Under the pieces are notes generated by a model, which had not been told where the DNA came from, searched no databases, and was given only the letters and a program-made list of their open reading frames with translations. A program made the position numbers and the translations under genes. A stretch of 64,000 nucleotides of DNA, taken from the NCBI RefSeq assembly GCF_053078305.1, contig NZ_CP166879.1. One strand, written 5' to 3'. Below, piece by piece: positions 54,864-64,000 of the stretch (the stretch's first letter is position 1; each line of letters opens with the position of its first letter).

Positions 54864-56156
54864 ATGAGCAAAGGAACGACCAGCCAGGATGCCCCGTTCG
54901 GGACATTATTGGGCTACGCCCCAGGTGGGGTAGCAATCTACTCTTCAGATTACAGTTCTCTCGATCCGCAGGAATACGAAGATGACGCCGTATTCCGTAG
55001 CTATATCGACGACGAATATATGGGCCACAAATGGCAATGCGTTGAATTTGCTCGCCGTTTTCTCTTTCTGAACTACGGTGTGGTCTTCACTGACGTGGGT
55101 ATGGCGTGGGAGATTTTCTCGCTGCGCTTCCTGCGTGAAGTGGTTAATGACAACATCCTGCCATTGCAGGCATTTCCTAACGGCTCGCCGCGTGCGCCGG
55201 TCGCGGGTGCGCTTCTTATCTGGGATAAAGGCGGTGAATTTAAAGACACTGGCCATGTCGCCATCATTACCCAATTGCATGGCAACAAAGTCCGTATTGC
55301 GGAACAGAACGTGATTCATTCCCCGTTGCCGCAAGGGCAACAGTGGACGCGCGAACTGGAGATGGTGGTCGAAAACGGCTGCTATACCCTTAAAGACACT
55401 TTTGATGACACCACCATTCTGGGCTGGATGATCCAGACGGAAGATACTGAATACAGCTTACCGCAGCCGGAAATTGCAGGCGAGCTGCTGAAAATCAGCG
55501 GAGCGCGTCTGGAAAACAAAGGCCAGTTTGACGGTAAATGGCTGGATGAACTGGGCTGGGATGCTGCCGGGCAACTGATTGATGGGGAAGGACGGCTGGT
55601 TAACTGCGTGTGGAAAACCTGGGCGTGGGAAACCGCGTTTGATCAGATTCGTGAAGTTAGCGACCGTGAGTTTGCTGCGGTGCCAATCCGTACCGGTCAT
55701 CCGCAAAACGAAGTGCGTCTTATCGACGTATTGCTGCGCCCGGAAGTGCTGGTCTTTGAGCCGCTGTGGACGGTGATCCCCGGCAACAAAGCGATTCTGC
55801 CGATCCTCTGGTCGCTGTTCCCGCACCATCGTTACCTGCTGGATACCGATTTCACTGTTAATGATGAATTGGTGAAAACAGGTTACGCAGTGAAACCGAT
55901 CGCCGGTCGCTGTGGTAGCAATATCGACCTGGTCAGCCATCATGAAGAAGTGCTGGACAAAACTAGCGGTAAATTTGCCGAGCAGAAAAACATCTATCAG
56001 CAACTGTGGTGTTTGCCGAAAGTGGACGGTAAATACATTCAGGTATGTACCTTCACCGTTGGCGGCAACTACGGTGGGACGTGTTTGCGCGGTGATGAAT
56101 CACTGGTTATTAAAAAAGAGAGTGATATTGAACCGTTAATTGTGGTGAAAGAGTAA
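54864..56156 (+). CDS. gss: Glutathionylspermidine synthetase/amidase, short in-frame-deleted allele (430 aa instead of about 619): amidase domain intact, N-terminal half of synthetase domain missing
   Basis: N-terminus MSKGTTSQDAPFGTLLGYAPGG... with CHAP-type amidase Cys/His (HKWQCVEF, TGHVAIIT); C-terminal 130 aa align to the YgiC C-terminus, but only about 105 aa separate the amidase domain from that block versus about 256 aa before it in YgiC. Confidence 0.8.
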   Translation: MSKGTTSQDAPFGTLLGYAPGGVAIYSSDYSSLDPQEYEDDAVFRSYIDDEYMGHKWQCVEFARRFLFLNYGVVFTDVGMAWEIFSLRFLREVVNDNILPLQAFPNGSPRAPVAGALLIWDKGGEFKDTGHVAIITQLHGNKVRIAEQNVIHSPLPQGQQWTRELEMVVENGCYTLKDTFDDTTILGWMIQTEDTEYSLPQPEIAGELLKISGARLENKGQFDGKWLDELGWDAAGQLIDGEGRLVNCVWKTWAWETAFDQIREVSDREFAAVPIRTGHPQNEVRLIDVLLRPEVLVFEPLWTVIPGNKAILPILWSLFPHHRYLLDTDFTVNDELVKTGYAVKPIAGRCGSNIDLVSHHEEVLDKTSGKFAEQKNIYQQLWCLPKVDGKYIQVCTFTVGGNYGGTCLRGDESLVIKKESDIEPLIVVKE

Positions 56157-56171
56157 TACATGTTGTAGCAA

Positions 56172-56208
56172 TCCCGTACTGATTATGAAGAATAGTCAGT
56201 ACGGGGAT
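56172..56208 (+). terminator. Hairpin after gss (possible terminator)
   Basis: cccgtactga-N14-tcagtacggg 10-bp stem 16 nt after the stop; weak T tract. Confidence 0.4.
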
Positions 56209-56446
56209 TAATCAAATATTCAATATTTATATATTCAAATATTTATTCATTTCATATGTGAATACATTAACCAGCAGAATGCCTGTGTTCTAATTATTTC
56301 TAAAGATTTTTAATGAATGCTTATTGTCTGATACACAAGAAATAACACTCTTTTTATCGTTAAAAAATGATATTTCACTTTGCCCACACCGTTAAAGTCA
56401 CTGATAATGCGTCCGTTCGTAAATTCAAAATGGCGTAATCTAATAT

Positions 56447-57946
56447 ATGCTAAATTTATTTGTTGGCCTTGATATATACACAGGGCTTTTGTTATTACTT
56501 GCTCTGGCATTTGTGTTGTTCTACGAAGCAATCAATGGTTTTCATGACACGGCGAATGCGGTGGCAACCGTTATTTATACTCGTGCCATGCAGCCACAGC
56601 TTGCCGTGGTGATGGCGGCATTTTTTAACTTTTTTGGCGTGTTATTGGGCGGACTTAGCGTTGCCTATGCCATTGTCCATATGTTGCCAACCGATTTGTT
56701 GCTGAATATGGGGTCAACCCACGGCCTGGCGATGGTCTTTTCCATGCTGCTGGCGGCGATTATCTGGAACCTGGGAACGTGGTTCTTTGGTTTACCGGCC
56801 TCCAGTTCGCATACCTTGATTGGCGCGATTATCGGCATCGGTTTAACCAACGCGCTGTTAACCGGCTCATCGGTGATGGATGCGTTAAACCTGCGTGAAG
56901 TGACCAAAATTTTCTCCTCGCTGATTGTTTCCCCTATCGTCGGCCTGGTCATTGCGGGAGGCCTGATATTCCTGCTGCGACGCTACTGGAGCGGAACGAA
57001 AAAGCGTGACCGTATTCACCGCATTCCGGAAGATCGCAAAAAGAAAAAAGGCAAACGTAAGCCGCCATTCTGGACGCGTATTGCGCTGATTGTTTCCGCT
57101 GCGGGCGTGGCGTTTTCGCACGGCGCGAACGACGGACAAAAAGGGATCGGCCTGGTGATGCTGGTACTGGTGGGGATTGCCCCTGCTGGCTTCGTCGTCA
57201 ATATGAACGCGTCCGGCTATGAAATTACCCGTACCCGCGATGCCGTTACCAACTTCGAACACTACCTGCAACAGCATCCTGAACTGCCGCAGAAGTTGAT
57301 TACGATGGAACCTCCATTGCCTGCGGCATCTACTGATGGCGCGCAAGTGACGGAGTTTCACTGTCATCCGGCAAATACCTTTGATGCGATTGCGCGCGTT
57401 AAAACGATGCTGCCAGGCAATATGGAAAGTTACGAGCCGTTAAGCGTGAGTCAGCGCAGCCAGCTGCGCCGCATTATGCTGTGCATCTCTGATACCTCCG
57501 CGAAGCTGGCGAAACTGCCAGGCGTCAGTAAAGAAGACCAGAACCTGCTGAAAAAACTTCGCAGCGATATGTTAAGCACCATTGAGTACGCTCCGGTGTG
57601 GATCATCATGGCGGTAGCACTGGCGCTCGGCATTGGCACCATGATTGGCTGGCGTCGTGTAGCGATGACCATCGGTGAGAAGATTGGTAAGCGCGGCATG
57701 ACGTATGCGCAAGGCATGGCGGCACAAATGACGGCGGCAGTGTCTATCGGTCTTGCCAGTTATATTGGGATGCCCGTCTCCACAACACACGTCCTCTCGT
57801 CTGCAGTTGCAGGGACGATGGTGGTGGACGGCGGTGGGTTACAGCGTAAAACGGTAACCAGCATCCTGATGGCATGGGTGTTTACTTTACCGGCGGCAAT
57901 TTTTCTTTCTGGTGGGCTGTACTGGATAGCATTGCAGTTGATTTAA
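56447..57946 (+). CDS. pitB: Low-affinity inorganic phosphate transporter PitB
   Basis: 499 aa; [39 protein letters not shown]... PiT family. Confidence 0.9.
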
Positions 57947-57994
57947 CCTTCCTGAAAATGCCCGGTCCTGGCGATCGGGCATTTCCATATTTGG

Positions 57995-58687
57995 CTAGTG
58001 ATAACCACGCGCGGTCATAAAATCCGTAATCGCTTTTTCTGCATCAACCAACACCTGTTCCAGTGGCTGATTGGCATCGATATCAACCAGTTGTGCACCA
58101 CCAAAGGTTAACTGTGGCGTTATGGCAATCTTCCTCGCCAGCGATTCCCGTTTATGGTCGGGTTTACGCATGCAGGCAACTTCAAGGTCAACATTGAGTT
58201 TGATGACCAGATCAGGCTTATGGCTCGCCATCCAGTGAAACGCTTTACGTTCCTGGCTTGCCAGCCATGAGACAAAACGACTACCTTCAACGTTAGGTGG
58301 GAACACCGTACCATCGTAAGCGCCCGGAATTTGGTCCTGAGGATAACGGTCGGTTAGAACAATTAACCCGCGACGACGACAGGCAAGCATATGACGAAAG
58401 CGCAGTAAGCGATGGGCGACAAACGCTGTAATTACCAGCGCCGGAACTGGTCCTGGCAATTTTTTTGCTGTTTTCACCTGATTTCGTTCAATTGTTTTAT
58501 GTAAGGATTTTCCCATCAACGGTAATTTTGTCACTGCACGACCGACATTTCCGGCCTGTTTTCCTAAATGAACTCTTTCGGCAGCACCATATTTTTCGAC
58601 AACGGTAATGAGATGTTCACACACCGTTGACTTGCCTGAACCATCGCTACCAATAACGGCAATTAATGGAGGTGTTATTGACTGCAT
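57995..58687 (-). CDS. yghT: Uncharacterised P-loop NTPase YghT
   Basis: 230 aa; Walker [10 protein letters not shown], plus TDRYPQD and RKPDH motifs shared with the two paralogs on the opposite strand. Confidence 0.8.
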
Positions 58688-58860
58688 GAATATATCCTTA
58701 AATTTAAATATCCATCCAAAATATTTATTTGGTTAATATGTTTTTATGAAAGCGTAATTCAGGTCAATGTCACAATTAACCATTGTCACAATAAGGTTGA
58801 ACGGATATTCTGAGCACGGACCACGTAATATTCAATACATTATTTACTGTCGGGTTTTTC

Positions 58861-59574
58861 GTGAATCAACGTAATATGTCAATAATTAATTCCACGCCAG
58901 TGCGTGTTATTGCCATTGTAGGATGTGATGGTTCAGGTAAATCGACCCTCACGGCAAGCCTGGTAAATGAACTGGCAGCAAGAATGCCAACAGAATGCAT
59001 TTATCTCGGGCAATCGTCCGGGCGAATTGGCGAATGGATTTCACAGCTCCCTGTTATTGGCGCACCTTTTGGGCGTTATCTGCGAAGTAAAGCGGCACAT
59101 GTGCACGAAAAGCCCTCAACACCGCCTGGCAATATTACTGCGCTGGTTATCTATCTGCTTTCCTGCTGGCGGGCGTACAAGTTTCGCAAAATGTTGTGTA
59201 GAAGCCAGCAAGGCCATCTGCTCATCACCGACCGCTACCCGCAGGTTGAAGTGCCGGGTTTTCGCTTTGATGGCCCGCAATTGGCAAAAACCACGGGCGG
59301 TAACGGTTGGATAAAAATGTTAAGGCAGCGCGAGTTGAAGCTGTACCAATGGATGGCGTCTTATTTACCCGTATTGTTGATTCGTCTTGGCATTGATGAA
59401 CAAACCGCGTTTGCGCGTAAACCTGACCACCAACTGGCAGCGTTACAGGAAAAAATCGCCGTTACGCCGCAACTGACATTCAATGGCGCAAAGATCCTTG
59501 AACTGGATGGTCGGCAACCAGCCGATGAAATTCTGCAAGCGTCACTACGCGCAATTCACGCCGCGCTTTCCTGA
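58861..59574 (+). CDS. yghS: Uncharacterised P-loop NTPase YghS
   Basis: 237 aa from a GTG start (alternative ATG at 58876); Walker A GCDGSGKST, TDRYPQ, ARKPDH. Confidence 0.8.
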   Translation: MNQRNMSIINSTPVRVIAIVGCDGSGKSTLTASLVNELAARMPTECIYLGQSSGRIGEWISQLPVIGAPFGRYLRSKAAHVHEKPSTPPGNITALVIYLLSCWRAYKFRKMLCRSQQGHLLITDRYPQVEVPGFRFDGPQLAKTTGGNGWIKMLRQRELKLYQWMASYLPVLLIRLGIDEQTAFARKPDHQLAALQEKIAVTPQLTFNGAKILELDGRQPADEILQASLRAIHAALS

Positions 59575-59605
59575 TCACCAAAATGGATAGGGGATGATTT
59601 AACGA

Positions 59606-60364
59606 ATGGATGCACTACAAACACAAACTGTTATTAGTACAACCGCGCCGCAGCCCAACTACATTCCGGGGCTGATTGCGGTGGTCGGGTGTGATGGCAC
59701 CGGTAAATCCACGCTGACCACCGACCTGGTGAAATCGCTGCAACAACACTGGCAAACCGAGCGCCGCTATTTGGGGCTGCTCTCCGGCGAAGACGGCGAC
59801 AAAATTAAACGATTGCCGTTGGTTGGCGTCTGGCTGGAACGGCGACTGGCGGCCAAATCCTCGAAAACCCAAAGCATGAAAACCAAATCTCCGGCGCTAT
59901 GGGCGGCGGTGATTATGTACTGCTTCTCGCTGCGAAGAATGGCGAATCTACGCAAGGTTCAGCGACTGGCGCAAAGTGGCGTTCTGGTGGTCAGCGATCG
60001 CTTCCCGCAGGCTGAAATTTCGGGCTTTTATTATGACGGACCGGGGATCGGCGTCGAACGTGCGACCGGGAAAATCAGCATGTTTCTGGCGCAGCGCGAA
60101 CGGCGTTTATACCAAAAAATGGCGCAATACCGTCCTGAATTAATCATTCGTTTGGGGATTGATATTGATACTGCCATCTCCCGCAAGCCTGACCATGACT
60201 ATGCCGAGCTGCAGGACAAAATCGGCGTCATGTCGACGATTGGCTATAACGGCACAAAAATTCTTGAGATTGATTCCAGAGCGCCCTACAGCGAAGTGCT
60301 GGAACAGGCACAGAAGGCGGTTTCTCTGGTTGCCATCGTTTCTGACCGCCGAAGTTTAACTTAA
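59606..60364 (+). CDS. yghR: Uncharacterised P-loop NTPase YghR
   Basis: 252 aa; Walker A GCDGTGKST, SDRFPQ, SRKPDH. Confidence 0.8.
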   Translation: MDALQTQTVISTTAPQPNYIPGLIAVVGCDGTGKSTLTTDLVKSLQQHWQTERRYLGLLSGEDGDKIKRLPLVGVWLERRLAAKSSKTQSMKTKSPALWAAVIMYCFSLRRMANLRKVQRLAQSGVLVVSDRFPQAEISGFYYDGPGIGVERATGKISMFLAQRERRLYQKMAQYRPELIIRLGIDIDTAISRKPDHDYAELQDKIGVMSTIGYNGTKILEIDSRAPYSEVLEQAQKAVSLVAIVSDRRSLT

Positions 60365-60409
60365 GGCTGGCGGGATACTTTTTACTATCAACGATAAGGT
60401 CAGGCTGAA

Positions 60410-61759
60410 TTGGCGGGTTTTAACATCAAACATTGGTTTGCAGATGGCGCGTTTCGCACCATTATTCGCAATAGCGCCTGGTTAGGCTCCAGTAATGTCG
60501 TGAGCGCTTTGCTGGGGCTGTTGGCGCTCTCGTGTGCCGGTAAAGGGATGACGCCCGCCATGTTTGGCGTACTGGTGATTGTGCAATCGTACGCCAAGTC
60601 GATCAGCGATTTTATTAAGTTTCAGACATGGCAGCTGGTGGTTCAGTACGGAACACCAGCATTAACCAACAATAATCCGCAGCAATTTCGCAATGTCGTC
60701 TCATTTTCCTTCTCGCTGGATATCGTCAGCGGCGCGGTGGCGATTGTCGGCGGCATTGCCTTACTGCCATTCCTTTCCCATTCATTAGGTCTGGATGACC
60801 AAAGCTTTTGGCTGGCGGCGCTGTATTGCACGCTCATTCCTTCAATGGCTTCCTCCACGCCGACCGGCATTCTGCGTGCGGTAGATCGCTTTGATTTGAT
60901 TGCTGTACAGCAGGCGACGAAACCTTTTCTGCGCGCAGCGGGGAGCGTCGTAGCCTGGTATTTTGACTTTGGTTTTGCGGGTTTTGTTATTGCCTGGTAC
61001 GTGTCGAATCTGGTTGGCGGCACCATGTACTGGTGGTTTGCCGCGCGCGAATTACGCCGCAGAAATATCCATAACGCCTTCAAATTGAATCTGTTTGAGT
61101 CTGCCCGACACATTAAAGGCGCGTGGAGTTTTGTCTGGTCGACCAACATTGCCCACTCCATCTGGTCGGCACGTAACTCGTGCAGCACAGTGTTGGTGGG
61201 GATCGTGTTAGGACCCGCTGCCGCCGGGTTATTTAAAATCGCCATGACATTCTTCGACGCCGCCGGAACGCCAGCGGGTTTACTGGGTAAAAGTTTTTAC
61301 CCAGAGGTGATGCGTTTAGATCCGCGCACCACCAGACCGTGGTTGTTAGGCGTGAAGTCCGGTTTACTGGCGGGCGGAATCGGTATTCTGGTGGCGCTCG
61401 CGGTGTTGATCGTCGGCAAGCCGCTCATTTCGCTGGTGTTTGGCGTTAAGTATCTCGAAGCGTATGACCTGATTCAGGTGATGCTGGGCGCAATTGTGAT
61501 CTCGATGCTGGGCTTCCCTCAGGAGTCATTGCTATTGATGGCGGGAAAACAGCGCGCTTTTCTCGTGGCGCAAACCATCGCCTCAATCGGCTACATCGTA
61601 TTGCTGTTCATGTTCTGTCATCTGTTTGGCGTGCTGGGAGCAGCGTTTGCTTACTTCGGTGGGCAATGTCTGGACGTGGCGCTCTCGTTAATTCCAACCT
61701 TAAAGGCATTTTTTCAGCGCCATTCCTTGCTTTATAACGCAGCCGGAGAGAAATCCTGA
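60410..61759 (+). CDS. yghQ: Polytopic inner-membrane protein YghQ, MOP/Wzx-flippase-like
   Basis: 449 aa from the ORF-track TTG start (true start uncertain); about 12 hydrophobic helices; longer than the 355 aa I remember for the K-12 annotation. Confidence 0.75.
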   Translation: MAGFNIKHWFADGAFRTIIRNSAWLGSSNVVSALLGLLALSCAGKGMTPAMFGVLVIVQSYAKSISDFIKFQTWQLVVQYGTPALTNNNPQQFRNVVSFSFSLDIVSGAVAIVGGIALLPFLSHSLGLDDQSFWLAALYCTLIPSMASSTPTGILRAVDRFDLIAVQQATKPFLRAAGSVVAWYFDFGFAGFVIAWYVSNLVGGTMYWWFAARELRRRNIHNAFKLNLFESARHIKGAWSFVWSTNIAHSIWSARNSCSTVLVGIVLGPAAAGLFKIAMTFFDAAGTPAGLLGKSFYPEVMRLDPRTTRPWLLGVKSGLLAGGIGILVALAVLIVGKPLISLVFGVKYLEAYDLIQVMLGAIVISMLGFPQESLLLMAGKQRAFLVAQTIASIGYIVLLFMFCHLFGVLGAAFAYFGGQCLDVALSLIPTLKAFFQRHSLLYNAAGEKS

Positions 61760-62583
61760 TGATGAGAAAATATTTCCCGCTTGAGGCGAGCGAGCGTCTA
61801 TTTGTTGCGATTGAAGAAGATGATGTCGTTGATGCACAGGTTAGTTTGCCGCCGACTATTGCACTAAGTTGTACCACCGAAATCATTCATGATAATTACG
61901 CGTTATGCCTGCAATTCTGGCTCAATGGCGTTGATCGTCAGGAATTACTTCGTTTAGTTCGCAAACAAGCCAAAGGCGATGAGCTGACTGCTGATGAGTG
62001 CAAACAATTTAAATACATGCGAGCGCGCTACAAGCACCTGCGTTTTGCGCAACGGCTGTATTTAAAGAAGCATCAGGCCGGATTTTTATTCGGCAAAACG
62101 ACCGTTTTTCTGGGACGTTTTCAGGACGGATTTCGTAACGGTAAGAAAAATATTGTGTCGTATTACGGCAACCTGTTACGAATTTATTTAAGCTCTCCGG
62201 TCTGGTCGTTGGTGAACTATTCATTACGCCATAGCCAGTTAGAAAGCGTAAGCGGTTTTATTGCCTATCGGCAAAAGCAAATGCATGCCCTGAAAGAGAT
62301 AATTGCCAAACCGCGACTAACCGGCAGGGAATTTCATGATGTGCGAAAAATCATCAGCCAGCAGGTTTCTTATTACGACACCTTAAGATCGCTTGATCCT
62401 GAAAATAAAGAGGCGTTACAGATTTCCCGTTTCCTCGCCGCCATTAATGGCCTGATGGGGGATAAACACGACGACATGGTGGCGGATGATATGGAAAACC
62501 GCCAGTCGTATGATGCACCGATGGCGCTGGATAGCGATATTCGCCAGCGCTTAGAGCTGCTGATTTCGCGTTTTCCGCTATAA
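61759..62583 (+). CDS. Hypothetical soluble protein (274 aa)
   Basis: Start ATG overlaps the yghQ stop (TGATG) with SD ggagag; no recognisable motifs. Confidence 0.6.
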   Translation: MMRKYFPLEASERLFVAIEEDDVVDAQVSLPPTIALSCTTEIIHDNYALCLQFWLNGVDRQELLRLVRKQAKGDELTADECKQFKYMRARYKHLRFAQRLYLKKHQAGFLFGKTTVFLGRFQDGFRNGKKNIVSYYGNLLRIYLSSPVWSLVNYSLRHSQLESVSGFIAYRQKQMHALKEIIAKPRLTGREFHDVRKIISQQVSYYDTLRSLDPENKEALQISRFLAAINGLMGDKHDDMVADDMENRQSYDAPMALDSDIRQRLELLISRFPL

Positions 62584-62591
62584 CCGGAGCA

Positions 62592-63155
62592 ATGATGTCA
62601 TCTCGTTTGATTATTGCGCTGATTATCATGCTCTTAGCCCCGGGTGTGCAGGCACACAATTTCGTCACTGGCAAAACGGTTACCCCTGTTTATATTCAGG
62701 AAGGCGGCGAGCTGCTTCTGAATAGCGACGACGAAATTCACTACCAAAAGTGGAACAGCACACAATTGGCGGGAAAAGTCCGCATTATCCAGTATATCGC
62801 CGGGCGTAAGTCAGCGAAGAAGAAGAACTCACTATTAATTAAAGCGGTTGAAGCGGCAAACTTTCCGCAGGATCGTTTTCAGCCCACCACCATTGTGAAC
62901 ACCGATGATGCCATCTTTGGTACTGGCTATTTTGTTGTTGGCAAAATCGAAAAAAATAAACGCCGCTATCCGTGGGCGCAATTCGTTATCGACGGCAATG
63001 GACAGGGACGCGTTGCCTGGCGCTTGCCGGAGCAGAGTTCAACCATTCTGGTGCTGAATAAAGCCGGGCAAATTCAGTGGGCAAAGGACGGCAGCCTGAC
63101 GCCGGTAGAGGTAGATCATGTCATTGCGCTGGCGCAGAAACTGATCAATGAATAA
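62592..63155 (+). CDS. Hypothetical secreted/periplasmic protein (187 aa), possibly YtfJ-like
   Basis: Signal peptide MMSSRLIIALIIMLLAPGVQA; starts 8 nt after the preceding gene with SD ggag. Confidence 0.6.
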   Translation: MMSSRLIIALIIMLLAPGVQAHNFVTGKTVTPVYIQEGGELLLNSDDEIHYQKWNSTQLAGKVRIIQYIAGRKSAKKKNSLLIKAVEAANFPQDRFQPTTIVNTDDAIFGTGYFVVGKIEKNKRRYPWAQFVIDGNGQGRVAWRLPEQSSTILVLNKAGQIQWAKDGSLTPVEVDHVIALAQKLINE

Positions 63156-63185
63156 AAAATTCAAAGGATTGAGGGCGTTAGTGAG

Positions 63186-64000
63186 ATGAAGCTGGTTGAA
63201 CACTACATCATGCGTGGTACGCGCCGTCTGGTGCTGATTATCGTCGGTTTTCTGATCTTTATTTTCGCCAGCTACTCCGCACAGCGTTATCTGACCGAAG
63301 CGGCAAATGGGACATTAGCTCTTGATGTTGTGCTGGATATCGTTTTCTACAAAGTGCTGATTGCACTGGAGATGTTGTTACCTGTTGGTCTGTATGTGTC
63401 AGTTGGCGTGACGCTAGGGCAGATGTATACCGACTCGGAAATTACCGCTATCTCTGCGGCGGGGGGCAGTCCGGGACGCTTGTACAAAGCTGTTCTTTAT
63501 CTGGCGATACCGCTAAGTATTTTTGTCACCCTTCTGTCGATGTATGGTCGTCCGTGGGCTTATGCGCAGATTTATCAACTGGAGCAGCAGTCGCAGTCGG
63601 AGCTGGATGTTCGCCAGTTGCGGGCAAAGAAATTTAACACTAACGATAACGGACGAATGATCCTTTCGCAGACGGTTGATCAGGATAATAATCGCCTGAC
63701 TGACGCGCTGATTTATACTTCTACTGCCAATCGAACCCGCATTTTCCGCGCCCGTTCGGTTGATGTGGTTGACCCATCTCCCGAGAAACCGACCGTTATG
63801 TTGCACAACGGCACCGCCTATCTTCTCGATCATCAGGGGCGTGACGACAACGAACAGATCTACCGTAATCTGCAATTACATCTGAATCCGCTGGATCAAA
63901 GCCCTAACGTCAAACGCAAAGCAAAATCGGTCACGGAGCTGGCGCGCTCCGTCTTTCCGGCCGATCATGCCGAACTGCAATGGCGACAAAGCCGTGGCCT
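63186..64000 (+). CDS. LptF/LptG-family (YjgP/YjgQ) permease, 5' portion; continues beyond the window end
   Basis: MKLVEHYIMRGTRRLVLIIVGFLIFIF... with the family-typical GQMYTDSEITAISAAGGSP block and following TM helix; no stop before 64000, so absent from the ORF track. Confidence 0.75.
   Translation, partial: MKLVEHYIMRGTRRLVLIIVGFLIFIFASYSAQRYLTEAANGTLALDVVLDIVFYKVLIALEMLLPVGLYVSVGVTLGQMYTDSEITAISAAGGSPGRLYKAVLYLAIPLSIFVTLLSMYGRPWAYAQIYQLEQQSQSELDVRQLRAKKFNTNDNGRMILSQTVDQDNNRLTDALIYTSTANRTRIFRARSVDVVDPSPEKPTVMLHNGTAYLLDHQGRDDNEQIYRNLQLHLNPLDQSPNVKRKAKSVTELARSVFPADHAELQWRQSRG

Follow-up and report, generated by a model that had tools for sequence, protein, structure and literature searches.

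Which compound, if any, is carried through the envelope of Escherichia coli by four closely packed genes that lie downstream of yghS and yghR, at positions 60410 to 64000 of a 64,000-nucleotide (nt) stretch of contig NZ_CP166879.1 (RefSeq assembly GCF_053078305.1)? This stretch, hereafter the window, is a segment of a non-K-12 E. coli chromosome with the gene order gss-pitB-yghT-yghS-yghR. The genes in question encode the flippase-like YghQ, a 274-amino-acid (aa) protein, a 187-aa protein and an LptF-like permease; we call the last three the CHAD-like gene (chad), ytfJ2 and lptF2. They are real, intact open reading frames (ORFs), whose sizes and gaps (-1 to 45 nt) agree with an initial annotation made from the window, in which they were taken for a dedicated glycolipid or polysaccharide pathway. 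We propose that they probably constitute the transport arm of an accessory 13-gene sphingolipid (ceramide) locus that was lost from K-12. The idea of an envelope-lipid system distinct from housekeeping lipopolysaccharide (LPS) transport is upheld, but a lipid-linked glycan or polysaccharide cargo is unlikely, since the genes adjoin ceramide genes. This decisive context was invisible in the window because the ceramide genes lie beyond base 64000.

The four genes lead into a ceramide biosynthesis cluster

All coordinates are positions in the window; beyond its end, the context was read from the locus of strain ET350 (L001), which is 99.5% identical. In ET350, lptF2 is followed by an LptG paralog, lptG2, and then, on the opposite strand, by genes for a class I/II aminotransferase, an acyl carrier protein, an NAD(P) oxidoreductase and a fatty acyl-AMP ligase, before yghO and glcC. 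On the NCBIfam model for serine palmitoyltransferase (NF047599; cut-off 500), the aminotransferase reaches 599 bits, and newer RefSeq records name its gene spt. In E. coli BL21, the five downstream genes carry the locus tags ECD_02850-02854; they are yghO (bCerS-type N-acyltransferase), aasR, epi/cerR, acpR and spt. The full order in intact strains is yghT (minus strand), yghS-yghR-yghQ-chad-ytfJ2-lptF2-lptG2, the convergent spt-acpR-cerR-aasR and yghO. Among these 13 genes, none encodes an ATP-binding cassette (ABC) ATPase. An LptG-like partner and such an ATPase had both been envisaged past the window end; the former is present in ET350, overlapping the lptF2 stop codon, while no ABC ATPase follows lptG2 there.

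Spt, AcpR and AasR of E. coli BL21 are active when overexpressed, and the five dihydroceramide genes were found clustered only in Caulobacter and in E. coli BL21 (Padilla-Gómez et al., PMC9386255). Since the transport genes adjoin these five published genes, a sphingolipid is by far the likelier cargo, rather than a glycan or LPS.

A precedent for such transport is provided by Caulobacter, whose sphingolipid region also encodes LptF2, LptG2, LptC2 and the putative flippase CC_1166 (PMC11324152). According to a preprint of April 2026 (bioRxiv 10.64898/2026.04.12.717747), deletion of lptF2/G2 in Caulobacter is tolerated only in the absence of spt or cpgB, LptF2 and LptG2 form a complex that copurifies with the single LptB, and the pair exports sphingolipid using LptB; its Figure 2B shows the operons of E. 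coli UTI89 as homologous. In 2024, the same group had stated that no sphingolipid flippase or transporter was yet identified (PMC11087976). The E. coli system is thus not categorically new, as its type is known in Caulobacter and the locus has already been drawn in the preprint.

The two loci are alike in several respects. As in Caulobacter crescentus (LptF2/LptG2, CCNA_01214/01213), a second LptF/LptG pair lies beside spt, acpR, cerR, aasR and bCerS, no LptB is encoded within the locus, and a putative flippase of the Polysacc_synt family is present. However, the E. coli locus lacks LptC2 and the head-group genes CpgA-D (CpgB being a diacylglycerol [DAG]-kinase-type ceramide kinase) and encodes YtfJ2, a CHAD-fold protein and three thymidylate-kinase-like proteins in their place. 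What is new relative to Caulobacter is this Enterobacterales accessory set, in which three E. coli components are uncharacterised. A head group other than that of Caulobacter is suggested by this set of CHAD-fold protein, YtfJ2 and three kinase-like proteins.

Linkage of the putative transport genes to ceramide genes

The linkage was surveyed by searching an alignment of the CHAD-like family (15 sequences) against one genome per species, which gave 136 species-level matches; 79 loci were retained, and homologs of all 13 E. coli proteins were then located in them. In Enterobacterales, the 13 genes remain together in at least three gene orders: that of E. coli, that of Serratia, with the ceramide genes upstream of yghT, and that of Sodalis and Rosenbergiella, in which lptG2-lptF2 diverge from yghQ. 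Carriers also include Pseudocitrobacter, Hafnia, Citrobacter, Pantoea, Erwinia, Mangrovibacter, Tatumella, Rahnella, Cedecea and Klebsiella indica, besides Escherichia itself. YtfJ2 is encoded in all 44 Enterobacterales loci, LptF2/G2 in 42 and Spt in 39, the five loci without Spt including some with short flanks.

A smaller module extends beyond this order. The yghQ gene lies directly upstream of the CHAD-like gene in 62 of the 74 loci with enough flank, alongside two or three YghR/S/T-like genes, and in 66 of all 79, a yghT-family gene accompanies both yghQ and the CHAD-like gene. In Xanthomonadales, the kinase-like genes are separated from yghQ by an insertion of spt-acpR-cerR-aasR. Sphingomonadales keep the core of yghQ, CHAD-like and kinase-like genes; in Acetobacteraceae, the CHAD-like and kinase-like genes are kept and yghQ is not directly upstream. 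Foldseek also found the CHAD-like gene in Zymomonas, Gluconobacter and Commensalibacter, and the lineages that carry it include classic sphingolipid-producing Proteobacteria. None of the papers searched reports a CHAD-like gene directly after yghQ with YghR/S/T-like genes across sphingolipid-producing Proteobacteria, and the module of two or three kinase-like proteins, YghQ and a CHAD-fold protein has not been described before.

Could this module serve a compound other than a sphingolipid, for instance, a polyphosphate-linked or other envelope compound, and simply happen to be next to the ceramide and Lpt2 genes in Enterobacterales? CHAD domains are known for binding polyphosphate, not lipids, and in 19 Sphingomonadales and 6 Acetobacteraceae loci, the module has no spt and no lptF/G within 10 kb. 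Since spt is not within that distance, the tie of the module to sphingolipids in these two groups is phyletic only. However, the module occurs mainly in lineages that include known spt-carrying sphingolipid producers, it brackets spt-acpR-cerR-aasR in Xanthomonadales, and in all Enterobacterales arrangements its genes are intermingled with those of ceramide synthesis and Lpt2. We consider a separate function of the module unlikely.

Other loci of the survey are less telling. In Sphingobium, the genes around the module, which encode a GGDEF protein, a GT4 glycosyltransferase and uncharacterized products, are uninformative, and two Luteibacter loci (L045 and L051) carry two CHAD-like copies side by side. 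A record labeled Martelella alba BGMRC 2031 (L036; Hyphomicrobiales, an alphaproteobacterium) holds a Serratia-type locus with proteins 61 to 78% identical to those of E. coli, which suggests contig contamination or recent horizontal transfer.

YghQ, a candidate flippase

The yghQ gene (60410 to 61759, plus strand) starts 45 nt after yghR with a TTG codon, as in RefSeq, and encodes a 449-aa polytopic inner-membrane protein, probably of the MOP/Polysacc_synt family, with at least eight strongly hydrophobic segments. It matches the Pfam families Polysacc_synt (PF01943, 1.1e-8) and Polysacc_synt_3 (1e-7), and it shares its Pfam/InterPro family (PF01943, IPR002797) with Caulobacter CC_1166. By analogy with that locus, YghQ is a candidate flippase for the sphingolipid or a precursor of it.

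The same matches, together with the RefSeq name "lipopolysaccharide biosynthesis protein," could be taken to mean that the cargo has nothing to do with sphingolipids and is a lipid-linked glycan, a glycolipid or a polysaccharide, exported by a Wzx-type flippase together with an Lpt paralog. YghQ resembles the Wzx/MOP-superfamily flippases in its PF01943 match and its polytopic inner-membrane build. Wzx flippases, however, sit with glycan-assembly genes, whereas YghQ is without such neighbors and is coupled instead to the gene of a cytoplasmic CHAD-fold protein. The 13-gene locus encodes no glycosyltransferase, Wzy polymerase, Wzz or sugar-nucleotide gene product, ceramide genes are the neighbors in all three arrangements, and the core-oligosaccharide contacts are gone from LptF2/G2. 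A glycan cargo is therefore improbable.

LptF2 and LptG2 keep the LptB-coupling glutamates and lose lipid A contacts

The lptF2 gene (63186 to 64000, plus strand) begins with an ATG 30 nt after ytfJ2 and has 271 of its 356 codons inside the window; lptG2, just past the window end on the same strand, encodes 359 aa. LptF2 scores 319 bits on TIGR04407 (cut-off 230) and LptG2 307 bits on TIGR04408 (cut-off 240), each scoring far lower on the hidden Markov model (HMM) of its partner than on its own. Alignments to the solved LptF/LptG chains in the PDB run end to end (residues 7 to 343 of LptF2 and 3 to 351 of LptG2). Hydropathy peaks at residues 15 to 120 and 296 to 344 of LptF2 and at 8 to 117 and 275 to 353 of LptG2 fit a layout of six transmembrane (TM) segments, three on either side of a periplasmic domain.

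This is nevertheless not the canonical lptFG locus, as that pair lies at pepA in 5,424 of 5,426 complete E. coli genomes, and its proteins are only 29% (LptF2) and 28% (LptG2) identical to the paralogs. With the canonical LptB2FGC (PDB 6MHU, 6S8H), LptF2/G2 have in common the family, the 3+3 TM layout, the periplasmic domain, the coupling glutamates and the hydrophobic cavity. The canonical genes are core genes, however, whereas lptF2/G2 are accessory (76% of genomes).

We compared 42 LptF2 and 41 LptG2 orthologs from Enterobacterales with the list of LPS contacts in Shigella LptB2FG (PMC6744409). The glutamates equivalent to LptF E84 and LptG E88 are invariant (42/42 and 41/41), and several hydrophobic cavity residues mostly retain their character. 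E84 and E88 are the coupling-helix glutamates that dock on LptB. Four contacts are still basic: LptF R33 (R in the paralog) and K317 (R), and LptG K62 (R) and R136 (K/R). In contrast, other canonical contacts to lipid A phosphates and core sugars are replaced. In LptG, K34 is changed to N/D/T, K40 to D/E (acidic in all 41 orthologs), K41 to D (41/41), R133 to L/Q and D37 to N/S; in LptF, the core contacts K322 and Q248 are lost to N and A/S, respectively. With their basic lipid A and inner-core contacts mostly replaced and their genes away from pepA, LptF2/G2 do not look like housekeeping LPS exporters. The residue pattern fits a transporter that still docks on LptB and would hold an acylated, probably anionic lipid other than lipid A-core. 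The replacement of K34, K40 and K41 in LptG2 with the LptB-coupling glutamates kept is described in none of the papers searched.

Might LptF2/G2 be a backup or condition-specific LPS extractor, for instance, for a modified lipid A? Both proteins exceed NCBIfam "equivalog" cut-offs, the NCBI Prokaryotic Genome Annotation Pipeline (PGAP) names them "LPS export ABC transporter permease LptF/LptG," and the cavity hydrophobics and coupling-helix glutamates are conserved. On the other hand, K34 becomes N/D/T where K34E is lethal in canonical LptG (PMC6744409), positions 40 and 41 are acidic throughout the 41 orthologs, Enterobacterales loci with enough flank never have lptF2/G2 without ceramide genes, and canonical lptFG is kept in essentially every genome. 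Such a role is very improbable, and the PGAP names are likely an overannotation, because key LPS contacts are absent from the paralogs.

Distribution, loss and selection

Presence was counted by megablast against the 5,426 complete E. coli genomes, with positions 60000 to 64000 as the query for the transport segment. This segment is present in 4,107 genomes (~76%), and the ceramide half of the locus is present in 4,063. In K-12, which the initial annotation had described as disrupted or truncated in this region, an IS5 insertion sequence (IS) indeed cuts yghQ short at codon 355, and the deletion that follows extends to just upstream of yghO (L002 9475 to 10640). In strain RM14721, an IS1-associated deletion runs from the middle of yghR into yghO (L088 9089 to 9857). 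Earlier reports on yghQ have little to add: in K-12, single-nucleotide variants after chlorhexidine adaptation, with a 2-fold change in MIC (minimum inhibitory concentration), concern the truncated pseudogene and have little bearing on the intact gene, and a silkworm screen gave no phenotype for yghQ.

The ratio of nonsynonymous to synonymous substitution rates (dN/dS) against Escherichia whittamii is 0.03 to 0.15 for all genes tested; the locus is under purifying selection. That the locus is an evolutionary relic in E. coli, its ORFs intact and never expressed to a functional level, would suit its silence in BL21 under laboratory conditions, the recurring IS-mediated deletions and its absence from about a quarter of genomes, but it is scarcely compatible with strong purifying selection on every gene, with 13 genes intact across many genera and with active E. 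coli Spt, AcpR and AasR (PMC9386255).

The CHAD-fold protein, the kinase-like proteins and YtfJ2

The CHAD-like gene (61759 to 62583, plus strand) overlaps the TGA of yghQ by 1 nt with its ATG, an arrangement of translational coupling, and encodes a cytoplasmic protein of 274 aa. The initial annotation had seen no recognizable motifs in it, and we found no Pfam match even at E ≤ 10. Exhaustive HMMER searches gathered a small family, which clusters at 50% into 207 representatives, with identities down to ~21%. In an alignment of 66 sequences, R88, D123, H193, R196 and D238 are invariant, and K92, R95, H105, K197 and H237 are nearly so. The AlphaFold2 model is all-helical, with a predicted local distance difference test (pLDDT) score of 97.2 and a predicted template modeling (pTM) score of 0.93. 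The family profile matches 6QV5 at an E value of 0.009, exactly over the invariant basic and His motifs, and Pfam CHAD (PF05235) is matched by 1 of the 66 members at E ≤ 1e-3 and by 16 at E ≤ 0.1; UniProt calls distant members "CHAD domain-containing" and the E. coli entries "Ybl138." The model and these profile matches characterize the protein as a divergent CHAD fold with conserved His/Arg/Lys motifs.

CHAD domains are polyphosphate-binding modules. The 274-aa protein is 8 to 17% identical to those of known structure (Ricinus 6QV5, Chlorobium 3E0S, Streptomyces PptA 6RN5 and E. coli YgiF 5A61). In contrast to known CHAD proteins, it has no CYTH fusion and no known link to polyphosphate granules and is tied to a membrane flippase and kinase-like genes in sphingolipid producers. 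Our literature search found no paper linking CHAD domains to sphingolipids. Locus-linked members have no signal peptide; signal peptides occur in 13 of the 66, in the most distant subgroup only. These distant relatives (P0208 to P0260; identity ≤ 27%) carry signal peptides or lipoprotein-like N termini, so a separate, periplasmic CHAD-like subfamily exists. The fusion proteins P0124 and P0268 are tandem duplications, no fusion protein of the family has an NCBIfam match, and the most distant homologs lie on contigs of only 1.6 to 2 kb, whose genomic context gave nothing.

YghR, YghS and YghT are P-loop paralogs. The yghS (58861 to 59574) and yghR (59606 to 60364) genes, on the plus strand, encode 237 and 252 aa, YghR having weak P-loop and Thymidylate_kin Pfam matches; yghT (57995 to 58687, minus strand; 230 aa) is divergent from the operon and lies upstream of the segment covered by the initial annotation. 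RefSeq/PGAP labels YghS and YghT dTMP kinases. On the dTMP kinase HMM TIGR00041, however, the three proteins score 21 to 32 bits (YghT 24, YghR 32) against a cut-off of 83, and this label is likely an overannotation because the scores are far below the curated cut-off. The family profile finds thymidylate kinases as its best matches in the PDB (1.8e-7) and ABC ATPases over the P-loop only, and the family has the invariant motifs GxDGxGKS, DRxP and ARKPDH. YghR/S/T are predicted to be divergent kinases, distantly thymidylate-kinase-like; CpgB, the DAG-kinase-like ceramide kinase of Caulobacter, is not their homolog. Two other assignments were considered. As the missing ABC ATPase, YghR/S/T are rejected, given the matches of their profile and because the module also occurs without LptF/G in Sphingomonadales. 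As PPK2-like kinases paired with a polyphosphate-binding CHAD protein, they are unsupported, since PPK2 is absent from the 60 best PDB matches listed for the profile.

YtfJ2 (62592 to 63155, plus strand) is encoded 8 nt after the CHAD-like gene; RefSeq places its start at 62595, giving 186 aa instead of 187. It scores 211 bits on the YtfJ model TIGR01626 (cut-off 151), has a thioredoxin-like fold and is 54% identical to housekeeping YtfJ. Of the assignments first made by eye, that to LptF/LptG is borne out by TIGR04407 and the flippase-like one by Pfam, with a score below the cut-off on NCBIfam; YtfJ, which had been listed as a family to search, is supported by TIGR01626. Whereas the periplasmic thioredoxin-fold proteins TlpA, ResA and DsbE have a CxxC active site, the TlpA-like YtfJ2 has none; cysteine is entirely absent from its mature form, which is therefore not an oxidoreductase. 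Between a predicted strand (residues 63 to 70) and a predicted helix (79 to 89), the segment AGRxSAK is invariant. The paralog was found only next to LptF2/G2, and none of the papers searched mentions a cysteine-free TlpA-like YtfJ2 restricted to such sites. As an analogue of LptC or LptA by fold, YtfJ2 is rejected, its fold being that of thioredoxin and not a beta-jellyroll; a purely functional analogy is possible. The housekeeping ytfJ of K-12 (L087 10526 to 11080) lies ~3 kb from tamA-tamB; TamB is implicated in lipid transport.

Operon structure and neighboring features

The genes yghS-yghR-yghQ-chad-ytfJ2-lptF2-lptG2 likely form one transcription unit with yghS as its first gene. The divergent yghT-yghS control region (58688 to 58860) is AT-rich (GC content, 0.39) and contains a sigma-70-like promoter match for the operon, TTGTCA-17-TATTCT, at 58783 to 58811 (L001 12784 to 12812). 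The same region holds a direct repeat, 16 bp apart, TGTCACAAT (58760 to 58811). Its proximal copy overlaps the -35-like TTGTCA, and in Escherichia, Pseudocitrobacter, Hafnia and Citrobacter, TGTCAC is kept at -76 to -83 relative to the first base of yghS; only two Escherichia loci have the distal copy. The repeat was considered as an operator and rejected, there being no evidence for one because only the copy that overlaps the -35 element is conserved outside E. coli.

Within the stretch from yghS to lptG2, no strong terminator was found. The 34 nt that separate the convergent lptG2 and spt (L001 19331 to 19365) are taken up exactly by a hairpin whose 16-bp stem includes 9 GC pairs and which is probably a bidirectional terminator. 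A second strong hairpin lies between pitB and yghT (L001 11957 to 11985, about 57956 to 57984 in the window). Rfam gave no RNA family match in 56000 to 64000. Farther upstream, gss (54864 to 56156; glutathionylspermidine synthetase/amidase) encodes 430 aa here versus 619 in ET350: residues 230 to 418 are lost in frame between two "LDE" repeats, so that the start of the synthetase domain is gone and the amidase domain is intact.

A possible transport route and points against it

For E. coli, we infer the lipid product, the inducing conditions and every transport step. AasR, AcpR, Spt, YghO and CerR would make (dihydro)ceramide at the inner membrane, a step shown with overexpressed enzymes of BL21 and through genetics in Caulobacter. 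Next, YghR/S/T together with the CHAD-fold protein of the cytoplasm may elaborate or hold a phosphorylated, anionic head group, and YghQ, judging from its family and its equivalent in the Caulobacter locus, could flip the lipid to the periplasmic leaflet. LptF2/LptG2 would extract it from the membrane, borrowing the housekeeping LptB because the locus encodes no ATPase; use of LptB by the E. coli proteins is suggested by the conserved coupling-helix glutamates and by the LptF2/G2-LptB pulldowns in Caulobacter. Finally, the cargo would move towards the outer membrane, with periplasmic YtfJ2 as a putative Enterobacterales-specific accessory.

A bolder proposal, which we offer tentatively and think rather less likely to hold than to fail, is that the module of yghRST, YghQ and the CHAD-fold protein builds and flips a phosphorylated, possibly multiply phosphorylated head group unlike the ceramide phosphoglycerate that the CpgA-D pathway makes in Caulobacter. 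The CHAD protein would be a phosphate- or polyphosphate-binding partner of the flippase, and most wild E. coli strains could place an anionic sphingolipid in the outer membrane via LptB-F2-G2 and YtfJ2.

Several points weigh against a sphingolipid transport arm. BL21 with empty vectors made no detectable 3-oxo-sphinganine (PMC9386255), so the locus looks silent in laboratory culture, and we found no paper reporting a sphingolipid from unmodified E. coli. The locus has been deleted via IS elements at least twice independently (IS5 in K-12 and IS1 in RM14721), and the Sphingomonadales and Acetobacteraceae modules are without spt or lptF/G nearby, as described above. On the NCBIfam MOP flippase model NF007773, YghQ reaches a weak 34 bits against a cut-off of 273. 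The mapping of LptF/G residues depends on alignments at 28 to 29% identity, and orthology of LptF2/G2 and YghQ to CCNA_01214, CCNA_01213 and CC_1166 is suggested by shared family, context and a figure legend, not by a tree. The roles proposed for YghR/S/T, the CHAD-like protein and YtfJ2 are drawn from fold and linkage only.

Implications

The route of bacterial sphingolipids across the inner membrane and on to the outer one is still largely an open question, the first evidence on transport being the 2026 Caulobacter preprint. No organism is better equipped for envelope genetics than E. coli, and ~76% of its sequenced strains carry an intact system, which went unnoticed mainly because K-12 deleted the locus. 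Its accessory set provides concrete candidates for the missing flippase and periplasmic steps. The annotation of these genes calls for caution, as PGAP labels the paralogs as the LPS exporter LptF/LptG and YghS/T as dTMP kinase. Should the locus be expressed in the host, resistance to polymyxin or detergents and immune recognition could be affected by an additional lipid in the outer membrane.

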